Made by a program: the position numbers and the translations under genes
Part shown: positions 207-13,408 of the stretch, in pieces
Position numbering within the stretch: position 1 is the stretch's first letter
Layout: each line of letters begins with the position of its first letter
The notes under the pieces: generated by a model
Told to the model about the DNA's origin: nothing
Databases searched by the model: none
Seen by the model: only the letters and a program-made list of their open reading frames with translations
Assembly: GCF_055900595.2 (NCBI RefSeq)
Contig: NZ_CM148325.1
Length of the DNA stretch: 64,000 nt
Direction: 5' to 3' (one strand)

Positions 207-680
207 CTACTCATCCGTACAACCCAGCCCCCGGCGCTGAACCACTTCACTGGCAAACGTAGCTCCGGTTTTTTTCATTATTCCTTTTTGTATTTTTTGC
301 AGCGCGGGAAATGAGATTCTCCTGCATGAATCCTCTTCCCATATATCACCAGTTACAGGGCTAACTGAAAATAGTCCCCACACATCTGTCGCTCCGGCGG
401 AAGGAGAATCATAACCTACCCCAAAACTAAAATACCCAGGATGATACAGGTTACCTTTTTTATCTTTCAGAGAACCGTCAAGAAAAAACCCAGACAATTC
501 CACATTATATTTTTCATTTTTTAGTGAAAAAACCAATAATGCCTGCGCCTGTATTTCAGTAAGACCTGACTGGTTAACAGTCGTTAGATCAAACCGCGGC
601 ACATTCCTGATAAGAATTTCAGCACAACAATTCACGGACACGACCATGAAAAGCAATACTGATATTAATTTACAGGACAT
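207..680 (-). CDS. Putative T6SS immunity protein (N-terminal signal peptide or membrane anchor), cognate to the upstream effector candidate
   Basis: 157-aa ORF whose start overlaps the stop of the 665-1135 ORF by 16 nt. N-terminal hydrophobic stretch LISVLLFMVVSVNCCA. AT-rich relative to the flanking T6SS core. No recognisable catalytic motif. Confidence 0.45.
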   Translation of the reverse strand: MSCKLISVLLFMVVSVNCCAEILIRNVPRFDLTTVNQSGLTEIQAQALLVFSLKNEKYNVELSGFFLDGSLKDKKGNLYHPGYFSFGVGYDSPSAGATDVWGLFSVSPVTGDIWEEDSCRRISFPALQKIQKGIMKKTGATFASEVVQRRGLGCTDE

Positions 681-1162: not shown

Positions 1163-1933
1163 TTAATGCGGCCGGATATCCAGCCGCAACGCATCCACAT
1201 ACCGCCCCTCGCTGTTCTGCTGCCAGAACCAGCCCTGCCCCTGCTGCGCCTGCGTCAGCATTTTGTCCGGCCAGCCCGGCCACGGCAGGTGGCGCACACC
1301 GGGCAGTTCCACTACCGGCACGTCCGGCAGGCCGGTGAGTTCCCGGCTACGCTGCGGTACACGTCGTAAGCCGCGTAGCCACTGCGCCCAGCGCGGCCCC
1401 GGTCGCCACATCGCCCAGAGCTGGTCTGTCTGCTCCGCCAGTCGACCGCAGCGTTCTGTCTGTGGTGAGACATGAGCTGCCGTCAACTGCGCCAGCCAGT
1501 ACAGCCAGCCCTGTGTGTCATCCAGGCTCTCTTCCAGCCATTCCCGCCCGACACGCTGGTAAATCACCAGTGGCCACGGCCTGCCCGTACTGTCACGCGA
1601 GGCGGTCAGCACCCCGGTCAGCCACTCATCGCGCCCGCCAATGGGGAGAAATCCCGGCGACAGCACAAAACTCCACGGCAATGGGTGGTGCTCCGGTAGT
1701 GCCGTTTTCTCACGTGGTGACAGGTGCATCCAGCCGTCATTTGTTCCGGCCTTCTCGGCATCCGCGCCGTCCGGCACCACGATATGCCGCCCCTGTCCCA
1801 GCCACGTCTGCTGGTTCAGCCACGCCTGCCACACCTGCCCTTCGTTCGCGCTCACCCGCCAGCGCACGTAGTCCCGCTGGTCCGGCAGTCTGCCGAACAT
1901 CGCCGGAGCCGATACCTCTGCCCGGCGCATCAC
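1163..1933 (-). CDS. tagF: T6SS-associated protein, TagF-like (ImpM/DUF2094 type; position equivalent to SciT of Salmonella SPI-6)
   Basis: 256-aa ORF; start overlaps the tssM stop (translational coupling). Call rests on gene order after tssM and on size; family assignment is from memory, not motif-verified. Confidence 0.5.
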   Translation of the reverse strand: MMRRAEVSAPAMFGRLPDQRDYVRWRVSANEGQVWQAWLNQQTWLGQGRHIVVPDGADAEKAGTNDGWMHLSPREKTALPEHHPLPWSFVLSPGFLPIGGRDEWLTGVLTASRDSTGRPWPLVIYQRVGREWLEESLDDTQGWLYWLAQLTAAHVSPQTERCGRLAEQTDQLWAMWRPGPRWAQWLRGLRRVPQRSRELTGLPDVPVVELPGVRHLPWPGWPDKMLTQAQQGQGWFWQQNSEGRYVDALRLDIRPH

Positions 1934-4900
1934 AGCGCTCGCTCCGGGCAGGCGAAGCGTTGCAATAGCCCGCGGTTCACCGGGTCAAAATCCCGTCCGG
2001 CGGTGATTTCCAGCACCACCCGCCGCCCGTCAAAACTGTACTCCACCTGCTGTGTTCCCCGTACCACCGTCTCCTGCGCGTTACCCGCATCCAGCAGGTG
2101 AAACAGCGCCCATGGCCCGTTAGTCAGCAACGTCGAGGTGTCCTGGCGGATGCGCGGGCTGGCGGTGATTTCCGCCATTGAGCCGTTGCGCGGCCCCGGC
2201 CAGTTCACTTTCAGCGGCCTGACCGGGCCGTGAGCGTAGCGAAGCACCTGGCCGTCAATGTCAATCACCAGTTCGGTGATGGCAGGGTCCATATCCACCA
2301 CCCGCACCTGCATCGCCCAGGAAAACTTTTTCCCGCCTTCCCCATTAAAAAAAACGCTGCGGATCTGTTTCGCCTCCTGAAACGGTGTCAGGTCCGGCCC
2401 AAGCAACGTCATGTTGCCTTCGGTCGGTTTGTAGCGCCACGGGTTGCTGGCGGTGTCCGCCAGTGGGGCCAGTTGCTTCGTCCAGAACGCATCCAGCACG
2501 CCGCCGCTGGCAAAGATATGGTTAAAATCGTCCGCGCTGACTTCCTGCGGGCTGTCGGTGAAGGGGTAGCGCCCGTCGATGGCGTCGCGGCACTCATCAC
2601 CGATCACCGCTTCCATCTGCGCGTTCAGCACTTCACCGGTGCCGGCGTTGATTTTTCGCGTTCCCTGCTGCGTGAGATCCAGCAGAATATTTTTCAGTGG
2701 CGCGGGCAGTTTTGCCGCCTCCAATTGCAGTTTATCCGCCGCAGAAATGCGGCCAGGTAATGTGCTCGCTGCCAGTGCACTATCAGCGATGGTGAGCTGG
2801 GTGTAATACTCATTGAGCATCGTCAGCAGCGAATTTAACTGCGGCGCGCCGCCGCCCTGCCCGCTGTCTGTCCGCCCGGAAACCACTTCCCGCAAGGCGG
2901 CGAAACGGTCATCCACCAGTGATTTCTCTAGCCGCTCTTCCGGGTGGATGTCCTGCAATAGCTTTGCCGTCTGCACTGCTTTTCCCACATTGCCGGAGAG
3001 CCGGTCCTGCGTGCGCTGGGCCATCTGCTTTTGTCTGGCCTGCGCATCCAGCGGCGGCACCAGCGTGGTCTGCTCCACCACCGCTTTACTCAGGCGCATC
3101 AGCGGGGAATCCGGCGAGGCCAGGGTACGCAGCACCTGAAGGTCATACGCCAGCCCGGGACTGCCGTCTTCCCCGGCACTGTTGATGCTGTGAATACTGG
3201 CCAGAAAATCCTGCCAGCGGCGGGCATATTCAGCCAGGTACAGGCGGCGTACCTCACGGGTAACCGGGAGTTCCTGCCCCGGCAACTGGCTCATCACAAT
3301 ATCCGTCGTTTTTTTTTGCGTGTTTTCCCGGCCCATCACCCAGGCGTCGTCCGCTGATGCGGCTGCGACAAACTCCGACAGCCGTTTGTCGAACAGTTCC
3401 CGGTAGCCTTCGCGAGTGAAGATGCCGGGCACGCCCCGATCCAGCGGCGCGCCATCCGTGCGGACAAAAACCGTTCCCGCATCCGCGCCCACAGCGCGAA
3501 CCAGCGAAAACTCCTGCGGTGCTTCGCTCTCCATGGAAGCCAGGGCTCGAGTGTAGATACGCTCGGTGCTGGTATGGCCGTCAAGGAAAGCTCGCGCCTG
3601 GCGGATCAGCCCCTCATCTTTTTCCCAGGGCAAATGCACCACGCGGCTGCCGTCAAACAGGGCATCGATATGCTCCAGCACGGCGGCGCGACCGCCGAAC
3701 TCCGCCACGCTGTCGCGGTTGCCCAGGTCGTTCAGCACCCAGGCGTGGATCTCCGCCGCGTTGTATTTATCCTCGTGGTCCTTATCGAGGTTCAGCAACA
3801 GATAAACATGCAGGGCGTCATAGGCGGCTTTGCTGTCCTGACGCGCAATCGCATCCGAAAGCACGTATTCCATGCGTTTCACCAGCGGTGGCAGCAGTAA
3901 CTGGTCCAGCAGACGGTCATACAGGGATGCGACGCTCTCCATCACCGGCGGAACGCTGTAAAGACCATAACACCAGGCCAGCGGCGGCGAGTCCGGGTCC
4001 AGTCCCGGCCATGCAGAGAGCGCCCGTGCCTGGTTCAGCAGGGCCGGAACAGGCTGCATAGCAGGTTTTCCGGTATAGGCTTTGACATCACCATCCAGTT
4101 GGGTCGTCCGGCTGGCGATTTCATTCAGATAACCGCTGTTCCCCTGCTGGCTACCCTGCATGCCCTGCCACAACCAGAAAGCCAGCGCCAGTACCAGCAG
4201 ATGCCCGCCAGTACGCAGCAGGCGATAACGCCAGGCCCATTGAAGATTCGGCTCCACCAGGTGCGCTTCGCGGAAGATAAACTGCGTCAGTAGATCGTGC
4301 AGGAAATAGCTGCGGTTGCCGTCCGGCAGGGTATGGGATGGGGAATCAGCCTTCCCTTTGATCGCCCGGACAAAACGCTGCCAGATGCCCGACTGGTCAG
4401 CCACGGCGTCTGCCTGCGCCTGCGCGGCGCTGGTAAAAAATACGCCGCGCAGGGTGTTGTTAAGCTGGGTGGCGTCAAATTTTGAGTCGAGGAAAATCTG
4501 CTCAATGGCTTCCAGCAGCGGCGCACCCAGCGCGGCAAATTCACGCGGGAAGCGGTAGAGCCGCTGGCGGCTTTGAAGGTCGTACTCTTCCTGCAACCGG
4601 GTATCCAGCCCCTGATCCAGCCGCAGCGTCAGGTTTGCCAGTTCCCGGCCACAGAGCGCATGCAGCGACTGCGGATCGCTGGCGTGACGCCTGCGGCTGT
4701 AAGGCAGGGTGAAGCCCCAAACCTGGGCGCGCAGGTGGCTGGTCAGCCCGTGGAAATACTCCGTAAAGCCCGGCAGCAGATCCATTTTGGTGACGACCAG
4801 ATAGACCGGAAAACGAATACCCAGCGTCTCCCGCAGTTCCGCCAGCCGCGCACGCAGGGCCGCACAGGCAGCCAGTCGTTCCGCCGGGGACTGCGCGGTC

Positions 4901-5796
4901 AGATCCGCCACGTTCAGCGTCAGGATCACACCGTTGAGCGGTGCGCCAGGGCGGTGCTTACGCAGCAGCCCAAGAAACCCCTGCCACTCCCCGGCGTTAC
5001 GCTGAGTCGCGCTGATTTCGCCGCCGTCATCGTGGCGGGCATAGCGCCCGGCGGTATCGATGAGTACAGCCTCGTTGGTGAACCACCAGTCACAGTGCAG
5101 CGTGCCGCCGCCCGGCACGGTGAGGATATGCGCGGTCTGCTCCATCTGCTCCGCCAGCGGAAACTGTAGCCCGGTGTTAAGTAGCGCGGTGGTTTTGCCA
5201 TCGCCGGGGCTGCCGATAACCATAAACCACGGCAGTTCGTACAGGAAGCGCTTCCCTTCCAGGACCTTACGCCAGCCGGGCAGGTCCACCCGCAGTTGTT
5301 TCAGTTGCCGGATGGCACGGGTGACAATATGGCTGACCGTGCGCAGGTCGGCTTTAATTTCCCCGGCCACCGGCACGTCTTCCCCGCGCGGATGCAGGAA
5401 ACGGCGCAGCAGTTGTTCATCCAGGCGCAGCGCCCGCCACAGTCGGTACAGGCCATAAAGCGCATAAGTCAGCAGGATCAGGCCGATAAGCGTCAGACGC
5501 AGCCACAGCGGCGCAAACGGGCGAACGTCACCGAAGGCCAGCAGGGGTGAAACAAAACCGATGACCAGGCACAGAACCGTTACGCCAATGATGCTCATCG
5601 ACCAGTTCACCAGCCACAGGGCGAGGAACATCAGTAACAGAACGATGGTGACTACCCGGCTCCCCACAGATGCCAGCGGATGCAGGGTATCAAACGCCAC
5701 CAGCGGCCCGATAAACCAGACCAGCAACGCCAGCATCACCACGCCGACAACGGCCAGCGCGCGGCGGGAAAACAGCATACTGAGAAATTTTTGCAT
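1930..5796 (-). CDS. tssM: T6SS membrane complex protein TssM (IcmF family)
   Basis: 1288-aa ORF with N-terminal transmembrane helices, Walker A motif GSPGDGKTT, and a large C-terminal periplasmic region. Coupled to the upstream and downstream genes. Confidence 0.9.
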   Translation of the reverse strand: MQKFLSMLFSRRALAVVGVVMLALLVWFIGPLVAFDTLHPLASVGSRVVTIVLLLMFLALWLVNWSMSIIGVTVLCLVIGFVSPLLAFGDVRPFAPLWLRLTLIGLILLTYALYGLYRLWRALRLDEQLLRRFLHPRGEDVPVAGEIKADLRTVSHIVTRAIRQLKQLRVDLPGWRKVLEGKRFLYELPWFMVIGSPGDGKTTALLNTGLQFPLAEQMEQTAHILTVPGGGTLHCDWWFTNEAVLIDTAGRYARHDDGGEISATQRNAGEWQGFLGLLRKHRPGAPLNGVILTLNVADLTAQSPAERLAACAALRARLAELRETLGIRFPVYLVVTKMDLLPGFTEYFHGLTSHLRAQVWGFTLPYSRRRHASDPQSLHALCGRELANLTLRLDQGLDTRLQEEYDLQSRQRLYRFPREFAALGAPLLEAIEQIFLDSKFDATQLNNTLRGVFFTSAAQAQADAVADQSGIWQRFVRAIKGKADSPSHTLPDGNRSYFLHDLLTQFIFREAHLVEPNLQWAWRYRLLRTGGHLLVLALAFWLWQGMQGSQQGNSGYLNEIASRTTQLDGDVKAYTGKPAMQPVPALLNQARALSAWPGLDPDSPPLAWCYGLYSVPPVMESVASLYDRLLDQLLLPPLVKRMEYVLSDAIARQDSKAAYDALHVYLLLNLDKDHEDKYNAAEIHAWVLNDLGNRDSVAEFGGRAAVLEHIDALFDGSRVVHLPWEKDEGLIRQARAFLDGHTSTERIYTRALASMESEAPQEFSLVRAVGADAGTVFVRTDGAPLDRGVPGIFTREGYRELFDKRLSEFVAAASADDAWVMGRENTQKKTTDIVMSQLPGQELPVTREVRRLYLAEYARRWQDFLASIHSINSAGEDGSPGLAYDLQVLRTLASPDSPLMRLSKAVVEQTTLVPPLDAQARQKQMAQRTQDRLSGNVGKAVQTAKLLQDIHPEERLEKSLVDDRFAALREVVSGRTDSGQGGGAPQLNSLLTMLNEYYTQLTIADSALAASTLPGRISAADKLQLEAAKLPAPLKNILLDLTQQGTRKINAGTGEVLNAQMEAVIGDECRDAIDGRYPFTDSPQEVSADDFNHIFASGGVLDAFWTKQLAPLADTASNPWRYKPTEGNMTLLGPDLTPFQEAKQIRSVFFNGEGGKKFSWAMQVRVVDMDPAITELVIDIDGQVLRYAHGPVRPLKVNWPGPRNGSMAEITASPRIRQDTSTLLTNGPWALFHLLDAGNAQETVVRGTQQVEYSFDGRRVVLEITAGRDFDPVNRGLLQRFACPERAL

Positions 5797-6083
5797 TATT
5801 GTTCAGAACTCCATGCGAGAATCAGTAATAGCAAAATGCCGCAAGCTGAAAAAATCCTTCCAGTACGGGCTACTGAAAGAAAATAAAGAGCAATCTGAAC
5901 AATTATCAAAATAAAATAAATCAACATTTTGATTATTTCTCTGTTCCCATTTCCCTGAGGCAACGTTGTCATTGAAGGATCCATATCCTGCATCCATTGA
6001 TACTCATTCCCGGAAAAAAGCATGATGATGATCAGACCCATAATGAATAACAACCATCCTGATATCTGAATTATTCTTCTCAC
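5796..6083 (-). CDS. Small predicted 3-TM inner-membrane protein of unknown function (SciR-position gene)
   Basis: 95-aa ORF with three hydrophobic segments (IIQISGWLLFIMGLIIIMLF, MLIYFILIIVQIALYFL, IFSACGILLLLILAW). Its stop overlaps the tssM start. Strongly AT-rich. Confidence 0.45.
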   Translation of the reverse strand: MRRIIQISGWLLFIMGLIIIMLFSGNEYQWMQDMDPSMTTLPQGNGNREIIKMLIYFILIIVQIALYFLSVARTGRIFSACGILLLLILAWSSEQ

Positions 6084-6091
6084 GAAGACTC

Positions 6092-6766
6092 CTAATGGGC
6101 GATGAGTAAATTAGAGAAATGCAACCAGTTGTTGACAATAAAATTGCCATAGCTGGTATCTTCCTTTATTTTCTCCAGAGTAAGCGACATACCCCGGTTA
6201 TAACGGGCACCAATAATTCTTATCTGCTCTTTCGTCAGGTGTGGTAAGGAGGACTGAAATTCATCTCTTTCAGCTAATTGATAAAGATGTCTGGCCACAA
6301 GTTGAATATTAAAAATATCATGCTGGAGGCAATTTGCCAGTTCACGCAATTGAGAGGTATCCATTTTTGACTCATCAAGCCCAAGCGTTCTGGCTGCGGT
6401 TCGCAATTGCATACTCACTGCACCAAAAGATGTTTTTTCTGGTCTCGAAGTTATTGTGATATGTTCATCAATCCACTCAGGCCCACTCCAGTCAATAGTC
6501 CGAGCATCAAATGCCAGCATATCTACAATACTGGGATCCCCCCCGACTTCTATCCAACACACACCTGCCAGTAAAGGTGCTGGCAAATTATATGTATTGG
6601 CAGCCGATGTTATCAGAAGATGGTTATGTTTTACCCAGCCATCTTTGAAATAACGCCCAAACGGTACACCACCGCCCCATTTTTTTGGCGCTAATTTCCA
6701 GAAAAGAAATTCGGTCACGCCCCATACCGGTGAATGATTCGATGCATTGCAGTCCAGATTATTCAT
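6092..6766 (-). CDS. Hypothetical protein with lysozyme/lytic-transglycosylase-like motifs (SciQ-position gene); candidate peptidoglycan-active accessory or effector
   Basis: ORF 6092-6775. ATG at 6766 has GGAG 8 nt upstream; an alternative GTG at 6775 overlaps the tssL stop. Motif series WIEVGG ... GAVSMQL ... GARYNRG is reminiscent of SLT-domain E / GLMQ / AYNxG motifs but with atypical spacing. No signal peptide. AT-rich. Confidence 0.4.
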   Translation of the reverse strand: MNNLDCNASNHSPVWGVTEFLFWKLAPKKWGGGVPFGRYFKDGWVKHNHLLITSAANTYNLPAPLLAGVCWIEVGGDPSIVDMLAFDARTIDWSGPEWIDEHITITSRPEKTSFGAVSMQLRTAARTLGLDESKMDTSQLRELANCLQHDIFNIQLVARHLYQLAERDEFQSSLPHLTKEQIRIIGARYNRGMSLTLEKIKEDTSYGNFIVNNWLHFSNLLIAH

Positions 6767-6771
6767 TTTTC

Positions 6772-8088
6772 TCACTCCACCACCAGAATTTCCACCCGAC
6801 GGTTCTGCGCCCGTCCGGTTTTAGTGCTGTTATCGGCCACCGGTACGGTATCTCCTTTCCCGACGACCCGAATCCGGCTGACCGGAACACCACCGGACGT
6901 CAGCAGTGAAGCCACTTCCGTCGCCCGTTTTTCCGACAACACCTGGTTGGAGGGGAATTCAGCGGAGTGGATCGGCTGACTGTCGGTGTGTCCGGTCACC
7001 GTCACCGCGCCGCCCACACGCGCAATCTCTCGCGCGGCCTTATCAATCACCGGGCTTAGCGCATCATTCACGGTTTTCTGCCCTGGTATAAACATCGTAT
7101 CGCCACGAAAGATTACACGGCTGTGATGGTCATCTTCCTCCACCGTCAGCAGGCCACGGGCGATTTCGTTCGCCAGCAGGATTTTCAGCCGCAGTTTATG
7201 CACTGGAACGGGTGGCGGCGGTAGATTTTTACCAATGGCGTCGATACGCTGTTGTACGGTTTCGATAGCGAGGTTCATCCGGTGGCTGTAAAGGCCAAAC
7301 AGCGTCAGCATCACCAGCAGGGCGATTCCGGCACTCAGCCAGACCGGCACGCGGCGCATCCGTCGCATTCGCCCACTGACGGCACCGGCAAAACCCGGCG
7401 AGAGCGTCGGCGTGATCGGATCGCGACGCTGGACCAGTTGAGTCAGCAGTTGCTGACGAATATCGTCCAGTTGTTTACGTCCGTCAGGCCGTACACTGTA
7501 GCGGCCTTCAAAACCCAGCCCCAGAATGTGGTAAATGATCTCCAGTACATCGTTGTGCTCCTGGAAGCTTGCGGCCAGACGCCCAATTATCTGAAACAGC
7601 TTGATGCCGCCTTCACTTTCGCCATGAAAAGTGACCAGCAGGCTTTTTCCAGCCCAGACACCGCGCCGCCCCCAGGTGGTGTTGTTGGCGGCTTCGTCCA
7701 GCGAAGTGCATAGGCAATAACGCACAGCCAGCACATGTTCGCGGCGAAGGTTTGCCTGATCGCATAACGTCTGATATCGACGAACTTCACGCTCCAGTAG
7801 GGCACGATAATGTTCGACAAAACCAGGGGATAGTTCACGGGGCATTTGCGCCAGCGCGCACAGCAGAGGGCTTGCCGCCGCTAAAAGGGGATTCACGGCA
7901 GCGGTGATTTCAGCCAGCCGGATCTTCACATCCGGGCCGTCTTCAACCACCACCTTTATATCTTCCCTGCGAAGGTTGTCCTGTATTGCCGTATCGTAAC
8001 CGTCACTGTCGGGCAGTTTTACTCCCCCGGCTGATGGCTGGAAGGGCAGGGTATTCGCCGCAGGCGGCGTCAGGATCTCATCGGTCAT
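6772..8088 (-). CDS. tssL: T6SS membrane protein TssL (DotU-like) with C-terminal OmpA/MotB-like peptidoglycan-binding domain
   Basis: 438-aa ORF with a DotU-like N-terminal region, one TM segment (VWLSAGIALLVMLTLFGLY), and a C-terminal OmpA-like region (TVTGHTDSQP...SEKRA...NRRVEI). Overlaps the tssK stop. Confidence 0.85.
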   Translation of the reverse strand: MTDEILTPPAANTLPFQPSAGGVKLPDSDGYDTAIQDNLRREDIKVVVEDGPDVKIRLAEITAAVNPLLAAASPLLCALAQMPRELSPGFVEHYRALLEREVRRYQTLCDQANLRREHVLAVRYCLCTSLDEAANNTTWGRRGVWAGKSLLVTFHGESEGGIKLFQIIGRLAASFQEHNDVLEIIYHILGLGFEGRYSVRPDGRKQLDDIRQQLLTQLVQRRDPITPTLSPGFAGAVSGRMRRMRRVPVWLSAGIALLVMLTLFGLYSHRMNLAIETVQQRIDAIGKNLPPPPVPVHKLRLKILLANEIARGLLTVEEDDHHSRVIFRGDTMFIPGQKTVNDALSPVIDKAAREIARVGGAVTVTGHTDSQPIHSAEFPSNQVLSEKRATEVASLLTSGGVPVSRIRVVGKGDTVPVADNSTKTGRAQNRRVEILVVE

Positions 8089-10032: not shown

Positions 10033-10518
10033 TTAAATTTCTTTATTGGCCTTGAAGTCGTAGCCTGCGGTGATGGTGCCGCCGCTGCCACCTTGCTGGT
10101 TTTGCACCACGTATTCCTGCTTCACGGTGCTGAAAGAGAGTTCGACTGTTTCACGGGAGGCAATTTCACCTTCTTTACTGCCGCTGGGCGATACAACCGC
10201 CACAATCAGGTCAGTGAAGGTATATTTGAGATATTCCAGCGGATTGCCGCCTGCTTTACGCATGGTCAGCACAGCTTTCGGAATGTGTTTGCCAGAGGCG
10301 CAGTACTTGAACAGGTTCGGACTGGCGCGATCGATATAGTGGTCAAAGTCCAGGTTAGTCACGGAGACTTTACCGGATCCCAGACCGCTGCCCGCGTGCA
10401 TGGTGGATTCCTGGTGGATATTCCAGCGCCAGCTCAGCACCTCAATTTCATTTTTATGTTTGTCATCCATTGACTCGCCGTCAATACCGTCAATTTTCAG
10501 AAAAATGTCATAAGCCAT
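10033..10518 (-). CDS. hcp: T6SS tube protein Hcp
   Basis: ORF 10033-10524; the second ATG (10518) has better Shine-Dalgarno spacing and gives MAYDIFLKIDGIDG..., about 161 aa, typical Hcp size and sequence character. Confidence 0.9.
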   Translation of the reverse strand: MAYDIFLKIDGIDGESMDDKHKNEIEVLSWRWNIHQESTMHAGSGLGSGKVSVTNLDFDHYIDRASPNLFKYCASGKHIPKAVLTMRKAGGNPLEYLKYTFTDLIVAVVSPSGSKEGEIASRETVELSFSTVKQEYVVQNQQGGSGGTITAGYDFKANKEI

Positions 10519-10753
10519 TTTCATTTCCTTATTTAGAATTACTTAAAAATAACCTCTGATTTATCTGTACATCTGGATACAGGTAAACCATTGCCGTACA
10601 GAACCCCCTCTCCTTAATTTCAGAAGAACAGAAGGCTGTATAATTTCCGGTACTGAAATACCGGGAAGATATTTATTTACCTTATAAATAAATCATCAAA
10701 ACAATAATTTTAGCCCTGCGTTTCTCACTCAATATATTCACAAAATAAATAAA

Positions 10754-12899: not shown

Positions 12900-13190
12900 T
12901 TAAAAATCATACGCAGAGAGTATTTTTATAATCTCTTTGTTTTCTTTGTACTTTTCCCGCAGCACAGGGAGTGATTTCTTCGCTGGAGGACACCAGGTAT
13001 CAACCCCCTTTTCGATGTCTCTTTTATCCTTCTCTGGTAAAGAACTGTCCCATTCACCAGCAAGATGCTGGCACATTTCCGCATTACTCAGAAAATGCTG
13101 CACATCCTGTGGTAAAGACGGTTCCCCCTGAACACTGAAAGCGAACATCATTAACAGGAATGTCCACAACACCGGATAACGAAATGTCAT
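12900..13190 (-). CDS. Hypothetical small secreted protein (signal peptide) between clpV and tssB
   Basis: 96-aa ORF with N-terminal signal-peptide-like segment MTFRYPVLWTFLLMMFAFSVQG followed by a charged C-terminal region. AT-rich. No known family recognised. Confidence 0.35.
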   Translation of the reverse strand: MTFRYPVLWTFLLMMFAFSVQGEPSLPQDVQHFLSNAEMCQHLAGEWDSSLPEKDKRDIEKGVDTWCPPAKKSLPVLREKYKENKEIIKILSAYDF

Positions 13191-13408
13191 ACTTAATGTC
13201 CATCAATTGACCAGTGCATGAGATATGCTCTGGCGGGAGGGCGATATGTTGCAGAGATACTGCCCCTTGCACGCGCATTACCAAGCGCGCGCAAAAAATT
13301 TTCTACCGATGCACGAAAAGTCCCCTGCAAATCATTAGTGGAAGAACTTACAGGAAAGCGACTGACCCACATTGCGCCACTTAATTCTTTTGCCATAAGG
13401 ATGCTCCA

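Follow-up and report, generated by a model that had tools for sequence, protein, structure and literature searches.

A lysozyme-fold protein and a small DUF2645-like membrane protein encoded between tssL and tssM of an Escherichia coli type VI secretion cluster: a probable effector-immunity cassette

Peptidoglycan-targeting effector-immunity pairs belonging to a type VI secretion system (T6SS) are well known, so the case described here brings no new principle, but it does bring a new family. Enzymes of muralytic type such as TagX, MltE, EtgA, and VirB1 reach the periplasm of their own producer by means of a signal peptide or anchor, and they are conserved with the machine. The effectors of the Tlde1 family, for their part, are small, Hcp-associated, and often encoded beside orphan hcp genes (10.1101/2020.02.18.954545). 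In Salmonella pathogenicity island 6 (SPI-6), Tae6/Tai6 of S. Fresno are found at the same genomic location as two orphans of S. Typhimurium, Tai6 (STM14_0332) and, beside it, the Rap1a-like Tai4 (STM14_0331) (10.1101/2020.02.18.954545). Surveys of SPI-6 define the variable regions VR1-3, and the SLT-like pair of the present work is not mentioned in them. We analysed this pair, geneA and geneB, in a stretch of 64,000 nucleotides (contig NZ_CM148325.1 of assembly GCF_055900595.2; hereafter, the window) that carries an SPI-6-type T6SS island of an E. coli chromosome, in a segment adjoining tRNA-Asp. The motifs, genomic contexts, and domain fusions gathered below indicate that geneA-geneB is probably a horizontally acquired T6SS effector-immunity cassette, placed in a tssL-tssM cargo slot and consisting of a putative peptidoglycan-glycan-cleaving effector and an immunity protein of DUF2645 type.

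On the minus strand, the genes of the cluster follow the order clpV, two small open reading frames (ORFs), tssB, tssC, hcp, tssJ, tssK, tssL, geneA, geneB, tssM, and tagF, and 3' of the latter lie a glucosaminidase gene and then a signal-peptide gene. The features that concern the pair are these:

10033-10524, minus strand: hcp of the T6SS cluster, an Hcp ORF and presumed carrier of the 25-kDa GeneA
6772-8088, minus strand: tssL, long form (NCBIfam TIGR03349 and TIGR03350)
6767-6775, minus strand: tssL-geneA junction, with the tssL TGA at 6774-6772, GGAG, and the geneA ATG at 6766
6092-6766, minus strand: geneA, 224 aa, predicted lysozyme/SLT-fold protein, putative T6SS cargo effector cleaving the glycan strands of peptidoglycan
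6084-6098, minus strand: geneA-geneB junction, with the geneA TAG within TAGGAG (Shine-Dalgarno sequence) and the geneB GTG 6 nt further downstream
5796-6083, minus strand: geneB, 95-aa three-helix inner-membrane protein, putative cognate immunity protein, DUF2645-like
5794-5798, minus strand: geneB-tssM junction, a TAATG stop/start overlap
1930-5796, minus strand: tssM

The geneA ATG is found 5 nt past the tssL stop, with the GGAG located 8 nt 5' of it, and an alternative GTG start at 6775, overlapping the tssL stop as GTGA, would yield a protein of 227 aa. The geneA stop is the TAG at 6094-6092, and geneB starts with the GTG at 6083, 8 nt past this stop, which is itself overlapped by an AGGAG; finally, the geneB TAA (5798-5796) shares its last letters with the tssM start. 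These junctions confirm an earlier note made from the letters alone (the sequence-only reading), which had placed two genes between tssL and tssM in tight coupling with both and had described them as more AT-rich than their neighbours. This also proved right, as region 5796-6775 has a GC content of 0.409 (0.39 at third codon positions, GC3) versus 0.58 for tssL (GC3 0.62) and 0.62 for tssM (GC3 0.73), and only 1.2% of the 980-bp windows across the 64 kb are as AT-rich. The geneA-geneB region is 99.8% identical to NZ_CP074749, and the whole 2.6 kb segment from tssL to tssM is present in around 145 of 5426 complete E. coli genomes.

The N-terminus of GeneA (MNNLDCNASNHSPVWGVTEF), as read from its sequence, lacks a hydrophobic core and so carries no Sec signal, which bears out the earlier statement that the protein has no signal peptide. 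Close homologues of about 220 aa (299 of them) were found; those of Burkholderia, Rhodanobacter, Methylobacter, Yersinia, Paracidovorax, Massilia, and Pseudomonas show 51-60% identity, and 49 columns are invariant. Among 34 homologues (51-85% identity), residues E73, G115, S118, Q120, Y189, N190, and G192 never vary; they lie within the stretches WIE73VGGDP, TSFG115xVS118(M/I)Q120, and ARY189N190RG192. As motifs in the alignment, these invariant residues match the ES / GLMQ / AYNxG series known from family 1 lytic transglycosylases; the E...GxxSMQ...YNxG series picked out beforehand is a real property of the family, conserved without exception among the 34 members.

Used as a single query, GeneA had no match in Pfam (even at E <= 10), NCBIfam, PADLOC, or the PDB; a profile of the 34 sequences gave no sequence match in the PDB either, and none of the 34 members matches Pfam SLT (PF01464). 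The lysozyme-like fold anticipated for the 224-aa protein was found instead by structural matching of its predicted model. MltE was among the best matches, all of which are peptidoglycan enzymes, with chitinases and other glycanases also present; in an independent Foldseek search, five Tse3 entries came first, with non-significant E-values. On the strength of this model, GeneA is a protein of lysozyme/SLT fold that stands outside the SLT and Tge1 sequence families, and its predicted chemistry could equally be that of a lytic transglycosylase or of a hydrolytic muramidase, as in Tse3 and g-type lysozyme.

Two roles had been put forward for the pair in the sequence-only reading, that of a second effector-immunity pair, which our results favour, and that of a dedicated peptidoglycan-remodelling factor for insertion of the apparatus, which they do not, in view of slot exchange and of fusions to delivery domains. 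In the latter role, GeneA would open the wall for TssJLM, as TagX in Acinetobacter or MltE in enteroaggregative E. coli, and GeneB would be its anchor or exporter; the tight coupling of the pair to tssL and tssM in the operon of the membrane complex, a fold like that of lytic transglycosylases with MltE among its best matches, and the high conservation of GeneA would all suit it. However, the composition of the pair marks it as a later insertion, and the slot is exchangeable. E. coli strains whose tssL/tssM flanks are 93-95% identical to those of the window carry a different, also AT-rich insert at the same place (E. coli Rb-50, locus L063, 4125-4938), whose products are a Tlde1_dom protein of 122 aa (Pfam E 2e-12) and a protein of 147 aa with a signal peptide, so that a Tlde1-type pair replaces geneA-geneB in sister clusters with near-identical tssL and tssM. 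The 122-aa protein, identified through Pfam, gave no phmmer match to the solved Tlde1a structure. Likewise, S. Typhimurium SPI-6 has only the orphan immunity genes at what should be the same site, since locus-tag order suggests that the Tae6/Tai6 location of SPI-6 corresponds to the tssL-tssM slot.

The 147-aa protein of the alternative insert is named "Shiga toxin A subunit" in RefSeq, and the same protein follows Tae4 in a Salmonella locus (L072, 6070-6513). This label is almost certainly wrong for what is a Tai6-type immunity protein.

The contexts of the pair in other species were surveyed at 54 species-representative loci taken from a genome scan. In about 45 of them, a gene for a membrane protein of 93-114 aa with a shared motif begins -4 to +18 nt past geneA; geneA and geneB travel as one module. 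T6SS genes lie within 10 kb of the pair at 12 of the 54 loci, and at nine the nearest one is 70-420 bp away, being hcp in seven of them, with vgrG, tagF, or tssL in addition; vgrG was counted at this distance in two species. A pair 81% identical to that of the window heads a long array on a Salmonella enterica contig, where it stands in the company of validated effector and immunity genes, in the order A-B-Rap1a-Tae4-Tai6-like-Tge2-Tgi2-DUF2195 (two copies)-Tlde1-VgrG. In Paracidovorax citrulli, A-B closes a PAAR-Rhs/SUKH island, and in Snodgrassella alvi, it lies directly 3' of tagF. Linkage to T6SS genes was thus found in independent lineages, comprising the slot of the window, the Snodgrassella tagF locus, the hcp and vgrG neighbourhoods, the Salmonella array, and the hcp-A'-DUF2645 trios described below.

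Two of these neighbourhoods deserve separate mention. In S. alvi (L010, 11227-13762), tagF-A-B is followed by a 199-aa ORF, another putative effector gene, and by four paralogous genes in tandem for lipoproteins of 153-159 aa, a set that resembles an additional effector with an enlarged immunity array. In Rhodanobacter (L005, 1129-7790), A-B is found directly downstream of Amidase_2, two beta-lactamase-family genes, Peptidase_M15, and Peptidase_M19; this cell-wall/peptide-recycling context, the sole one hinting at a housekeeping link, may be a coincidence.

The 42 loci with no T6SS neighbour within 10 kb, and the occurrence of the pair on plasmids as well, raise the question of whether geneA-geneB could be a T6SS-independent cassette of holin-endolysin type, or a toxin-antidote addiction module, that came to lie in a T6SS operon by chance. 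A signal-less enzyme of muralytic type accompanied by a small three-helix protein does resemble a holin-endolysin arrangement, and GeneA matches PHROG phrog_11932 (function unassigned) over its full length with an E of 2.6e-73. Nevertheless, tblastn with GeneA gave no match in 50,697 phage records, so that this PHROG entry probably derives from a mis-delimited prophage boundary, and GeneB has no PHROG match. The enzyme gene comes first, against what a holin-endolysin cassette would predict, and the retention of B-type genes where A' has been lost (see below) would make no sense for a holin. As adjacency to hcp, vgrG, PAAR, and Rhs has, moreover, arisen repeatedly and independently, we regard such a T6SS-independent origin as very unlikely.

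GeneB shows hydrophobic peaks at residues ~8-24, 53-69, and 78-92, three segments that agree with its initial description as a 95-aa protein with three transmembrane helices. Over 25 orthologues, the N-terminus and loop 2 are basic (2.4 K+R each) and loop 1 is acidic (5.1 D+E), from which an N-in topology with a periplasmic loop 1 (GNEYQWMQDMDPS) is predicted. It is in this loop that the only conserved motif of the protein, (N/D)KYxWMxxxDPS, is found. GeneB matches DUF2645 (PF10840) weakly in Pfam (E 0.013, model positions 6-87 of 98), and its orthologues have precomputed "weak" matches to the same family and, in some genomes, the name "DUF2645 family protein" from the Prokaryotic Genome Annotation Pipeline (PGAP). 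Comparison of the B family by hhalign gave a probability of 89% with YgiZ and only 6% with YjeO. B diverges much faster than A, with identities of ~22% vs ~55% for the same species pairs.

An immunity protein that is polytopic and exposes only a short loop would fit an effector acting at the membrane face, on lipid II, nascent glycan chains, or another glycan, as such a target would explain the membrane embedding, and the chitinases and other glycanases among the lysozyme-like fold matches could be quoted in the same sense. Against this target stand the SLT-type motif series of GeneA, the relatives of GeneA fused to peptidoglycan-binding and OmpA-like domains, and the fact that the best structural matches are peptidoglycan enzymes throughout, and we give it only a very small chance of being correct.

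A related subfamily, A', offers a second view of the same association. A' (236 aa) is 37% identical to GeneA and keeps the motifs WIESGG, TSFGSMGIQ, and RYNRG. Trios hcp-A'-DUF2645 were found in E. coli between mdaB and qseC, on a conjugative plasmid of Serratia fonticola, and on a Rahnella megaplasmid. In E. coli, the DUF2645 gene of the trio is ygiZ, encoding a small three-helix protein with an NKYDWM loop. Of 5426 E. coli genomes, 1262 have the hcp-A'-ygiZ island in full, whereas in ~3300 others, REL606 and the K-12 derivative EPI300 among them, ygiZ stands alone between mdaB and qseC, so that the gene is present in ~85% of complete E. coli genomes. From this distribution, ygiZ looks like a species-wide orphan immunity gene; the counts concern the A'/YgiZ subfamily and not the geneA-geneB pair of the window itself. 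The two states are exemplified by the following loci:

5456-6987 of L067: hcp-A'-ygiZ, E. coli PN43 (NZ_MG591698), a piece of chromosome (mdaB-qseC) deposited as a plasmid
2726-3058 of L080: ygiZ alone, EPI300

In E. coli K-12, a further DUF2645 gene, yjeO, overlaps the upstream yjeN by 4 nt (L065, 5394-6019). YjeN is a soluble protein of 104 aa that is not SLT-like, and the similarity of YjeO to the geneB family is marginal, as seen in the hhalign value given above.

A profile search with GeneA recovered 451 clusters at 50% identity, in many of which the domain is located at the C-terminal end of proteins of 300-730 aa. The A domain was found fused to a T6SS PAAR domain directly after vgrG, to an Rhs-associated core, and to WXG100, a substrate type of type VII secretion (T7SS), and it is also joined to peptidoglycan-binding or OmpA-like domains. 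In addition, proteins of 460 aa and 1491 aa encoded on Streptomyces and Nostoc plasmids, respectively, end in an A domain, with no trafficking domain recognisable by Pfam in either of them. The fusion loci are located as follows:

P0141/L076, 5001-6410: PAAR fusion
P0147/L078, 631-2050: Rhs-core fusion
P0240/L079, 3526-5967: WXG100 fusion
L069, 3191-4884: Streptomyces fusion
L070, 161-4636: Nostoc fusion

Behind each of the PAAR, Rhs, and WXG100 fusions lies a gene for a B-like three-helix protein, whose Y-x-W/G-M motif is clearly recognisable for the PAAR and WXG100 fusions, and a small three-helix gene follows the Streptomyces fusion gene too, the Nostoc protein being the exception. Judged by these architectures, the A domain behaves as the C-terminal domain of a polymorphic toxin, and the three-helix gene that follows the fusions implies a toxin-immunity pair shared by T6SS- and T7SS-type delivery.

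These fusions to delivery modules bear also on the possible role of GeneA in apparatus insertion. A factor dedicated to TssJLM would hardly be expected on PAAR, Rhs, and WXG100 proteins, nor, for most members of its family, far from T6SS structural genes (the same 42 loci), nor without a signal peptide or anchor that could take it to the periplasm of its own producer, and thousands of genomes would not be expected to keep its B-type partner on its own. With an exchangeable slot, a family mostly unlinked to T6SS genes, no route to the producer's periplasm, and the existence of delivery fusions, this role is disfavoured, and we hold it to be most improbable.

The effector-immunity interpretation that we prefer can be set out as a mechanism, for which we infer secretion, the Hcp route, toxicity in the periplasm, the bond cleaved, and the direct binding of GeneA by GeneB. 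GeneA (~25 kDa), a cytoplasmic product that lacks a signal peptide, would probably be loaded as cargo of the Hcp tube, as its size and the linkage of the family to hcp suggest, and injected into the periplasm of Gram-negative neighbours. In that compartment, the lysozyme/SLT-like domain of GeneA, with Glu73 as predicted catalytic residue, would cut the glycan strands of peptidoglycan, leading to lysis. GeneB would stay in the inner membrane of the producer, N-terminus in, with the conserved acidic loop KYxWMxxxDPS facing the periplasm, where it would neutralise effector molecules arriving from sister cells, probably by plugging the substrate groove.

Several observations weigh against this interpretation. 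Of the 54 species loci, 42 have no T6SS gene within 10 kb of the pair, and a link of GeneA to SLT or Tse3 at the sequence level was not found, even with the profile. In the model, region 103-119, which includes the invariant TSFG, has a predicted local distance difference test (pLDDT) score below 50. For an effector, GeneA shows an unusual degree of conservation (51-60% identity between E. coli and Burkholderia), which hints at extra constraints, and it is uncommon for a soluble cell-wall hydrolase to be countered by a polytopic immunity protein whose loop has only ~25 residues.

A broader proposal would take the A domain and the DUF2645-type three-helix proteins as a hitherto unrecognised toxin-immunity superfamily that crosses secretion systems, with ygiZ, and perhaps yjeO, as resident immunity genes, and with a toxin whose substrate is perhaps not the mature sacculus but glycan that is lipid-linked or nascent, at the face of the membrane. 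This last idea comes from the almost complete embedding of the immunity protein in the membrane, from which protection by membrane shielding, and not by a soluble inhibitor of classical type, might be expected. If true, the family would be delivered by T6SS (as Hcp cargo, PAAR, or Rhs proteins) in Gram-negatives and by a WXG100/T7SS route in Gram-positives. We offer this proposal as a speculative one, with a small chance of holding in full.

In conclusion, what appears to be new here is a widespread, unannotated toxin domain that is used by T6SS and apparently also by T7SS, a DUF2645 hypothesis, and a tssL-tssM cargo slot. The family of 451 clusters would join the T6SS effectors that act on peptidoglycan glycan strands, being invisible to Pfam and NCBIfam, and DUF2645, including ygiZ of K-12, would gain a testable function. 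In the literature, our coverage of which was incomplete, no paper was found that ties the GeneA family or DUF2645 to T6SS; Tge3 could belong to the same family. The tssL-tssM junction of SPI-6-type clusters would constitute a fourth cargo slot beside VR1-3, and this matters for predicting killing and resistance of strains in gut competition.

Between clpV and tssB of the window, at the VR1 position, two small ORFs of 67 aa (13193-13396, minus strand) and 96 aa (12900-13190, minus strand) were found. The product of the second has a signal peptide and resembles thioredoxin-like CxxC proteins weakly (PDB E 0.003-0.01). No match to Tae4 or Tai4 was obtained for either, and they may be a remnant or an undescribed effector-immunity pair. 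Downstream of tagF, an AT-rich pair of Tge2/Tgi2 type is located at 665-1135 and 207-680 (minus strand), with the second gene overlapping the first and encoding a signal peptide. The Tge2-type effector matches 4kt3_A with an E of 2e-46, and the composition of its pair is the same as that of geneA-geneB.

Compared with the described systems, the muramidase pair Tge1/Tse3-Tsi3 of Pseudomonas aeruginosa shares only the fold with GeneA, as no similarity was detected between the sequences, either singly or by profile. At 224 aa, GeneA has about half the length of Tse3 (408 aa), and the partners differ as well, Tsi3 being soluble or lipid-anchored in the periplasm and GeneB being embedded in the membrane by three helices. 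The Tge2-Tgi2 pair (SPI-6, P. protegens) is closer in its setting, since it is found in the window together with geneA-geneB, is AT-rich as well, and has an effector that is, like GeneA, a small cargo with the glycan strand as predicted target. However, Tge2 has a glucosaminidase fold (PF01832), unlike the SLT-like fold of GeneA, and Tgi2 has a signal peptide. The Tlde1/Tldi1 and Tae6/Tai6 pairs, with effectors of the DUF2778 L,D-carboxy/transpeptidase type, share the place, as a Tlde1-domain pair uses the same tssL-tssM slot; their effectors, of unrelated fold, target the peptide stem and not the glycan predicted for GeneA, and their immunity proteins are periplasmic with a signal peptide. 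The SleB-like T6SS effector described by Geller et al. (PMC11148199) differs from GeneA in fold and architecture.

Among the small membrane proteins of K-12, YgiZ and YjeO (DUF2645) are, like GeneB, three-helix inner-membrane proteins with an N-K-Y-x-W-M loop. Their contexts differ, as ygiZ follows hcp and an A-type gene in the 1262 genomes with the complete island, whereas yjeO is preceded by yjeN, which is unrelated to geneA.

The family 1 lytic transglycosylases (Slt70, MltE, MltC, MltF) have in common with GeneA the lysozyme-like fold, the catalytic Glu, and the ES/GLMQ/AYNxG series. In contrast to them, GeneA has no SLT hidden Markov model (HMM) match in any of the 34 members, no signal peptide, and no lipobox, and it has an extra conserved N-terminal region (C6, W15, W23, GGG) and a putative membrane immunity partner. 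Finally, with TagX, MltE, EtgA, and VirB1, GeneA shares a fold of muralytic type and a gene position within a secretion-system operon, but, unlike these components, geneA-geneB is an exchangeable cargo that is mostly encoded outside T6SS clusters.

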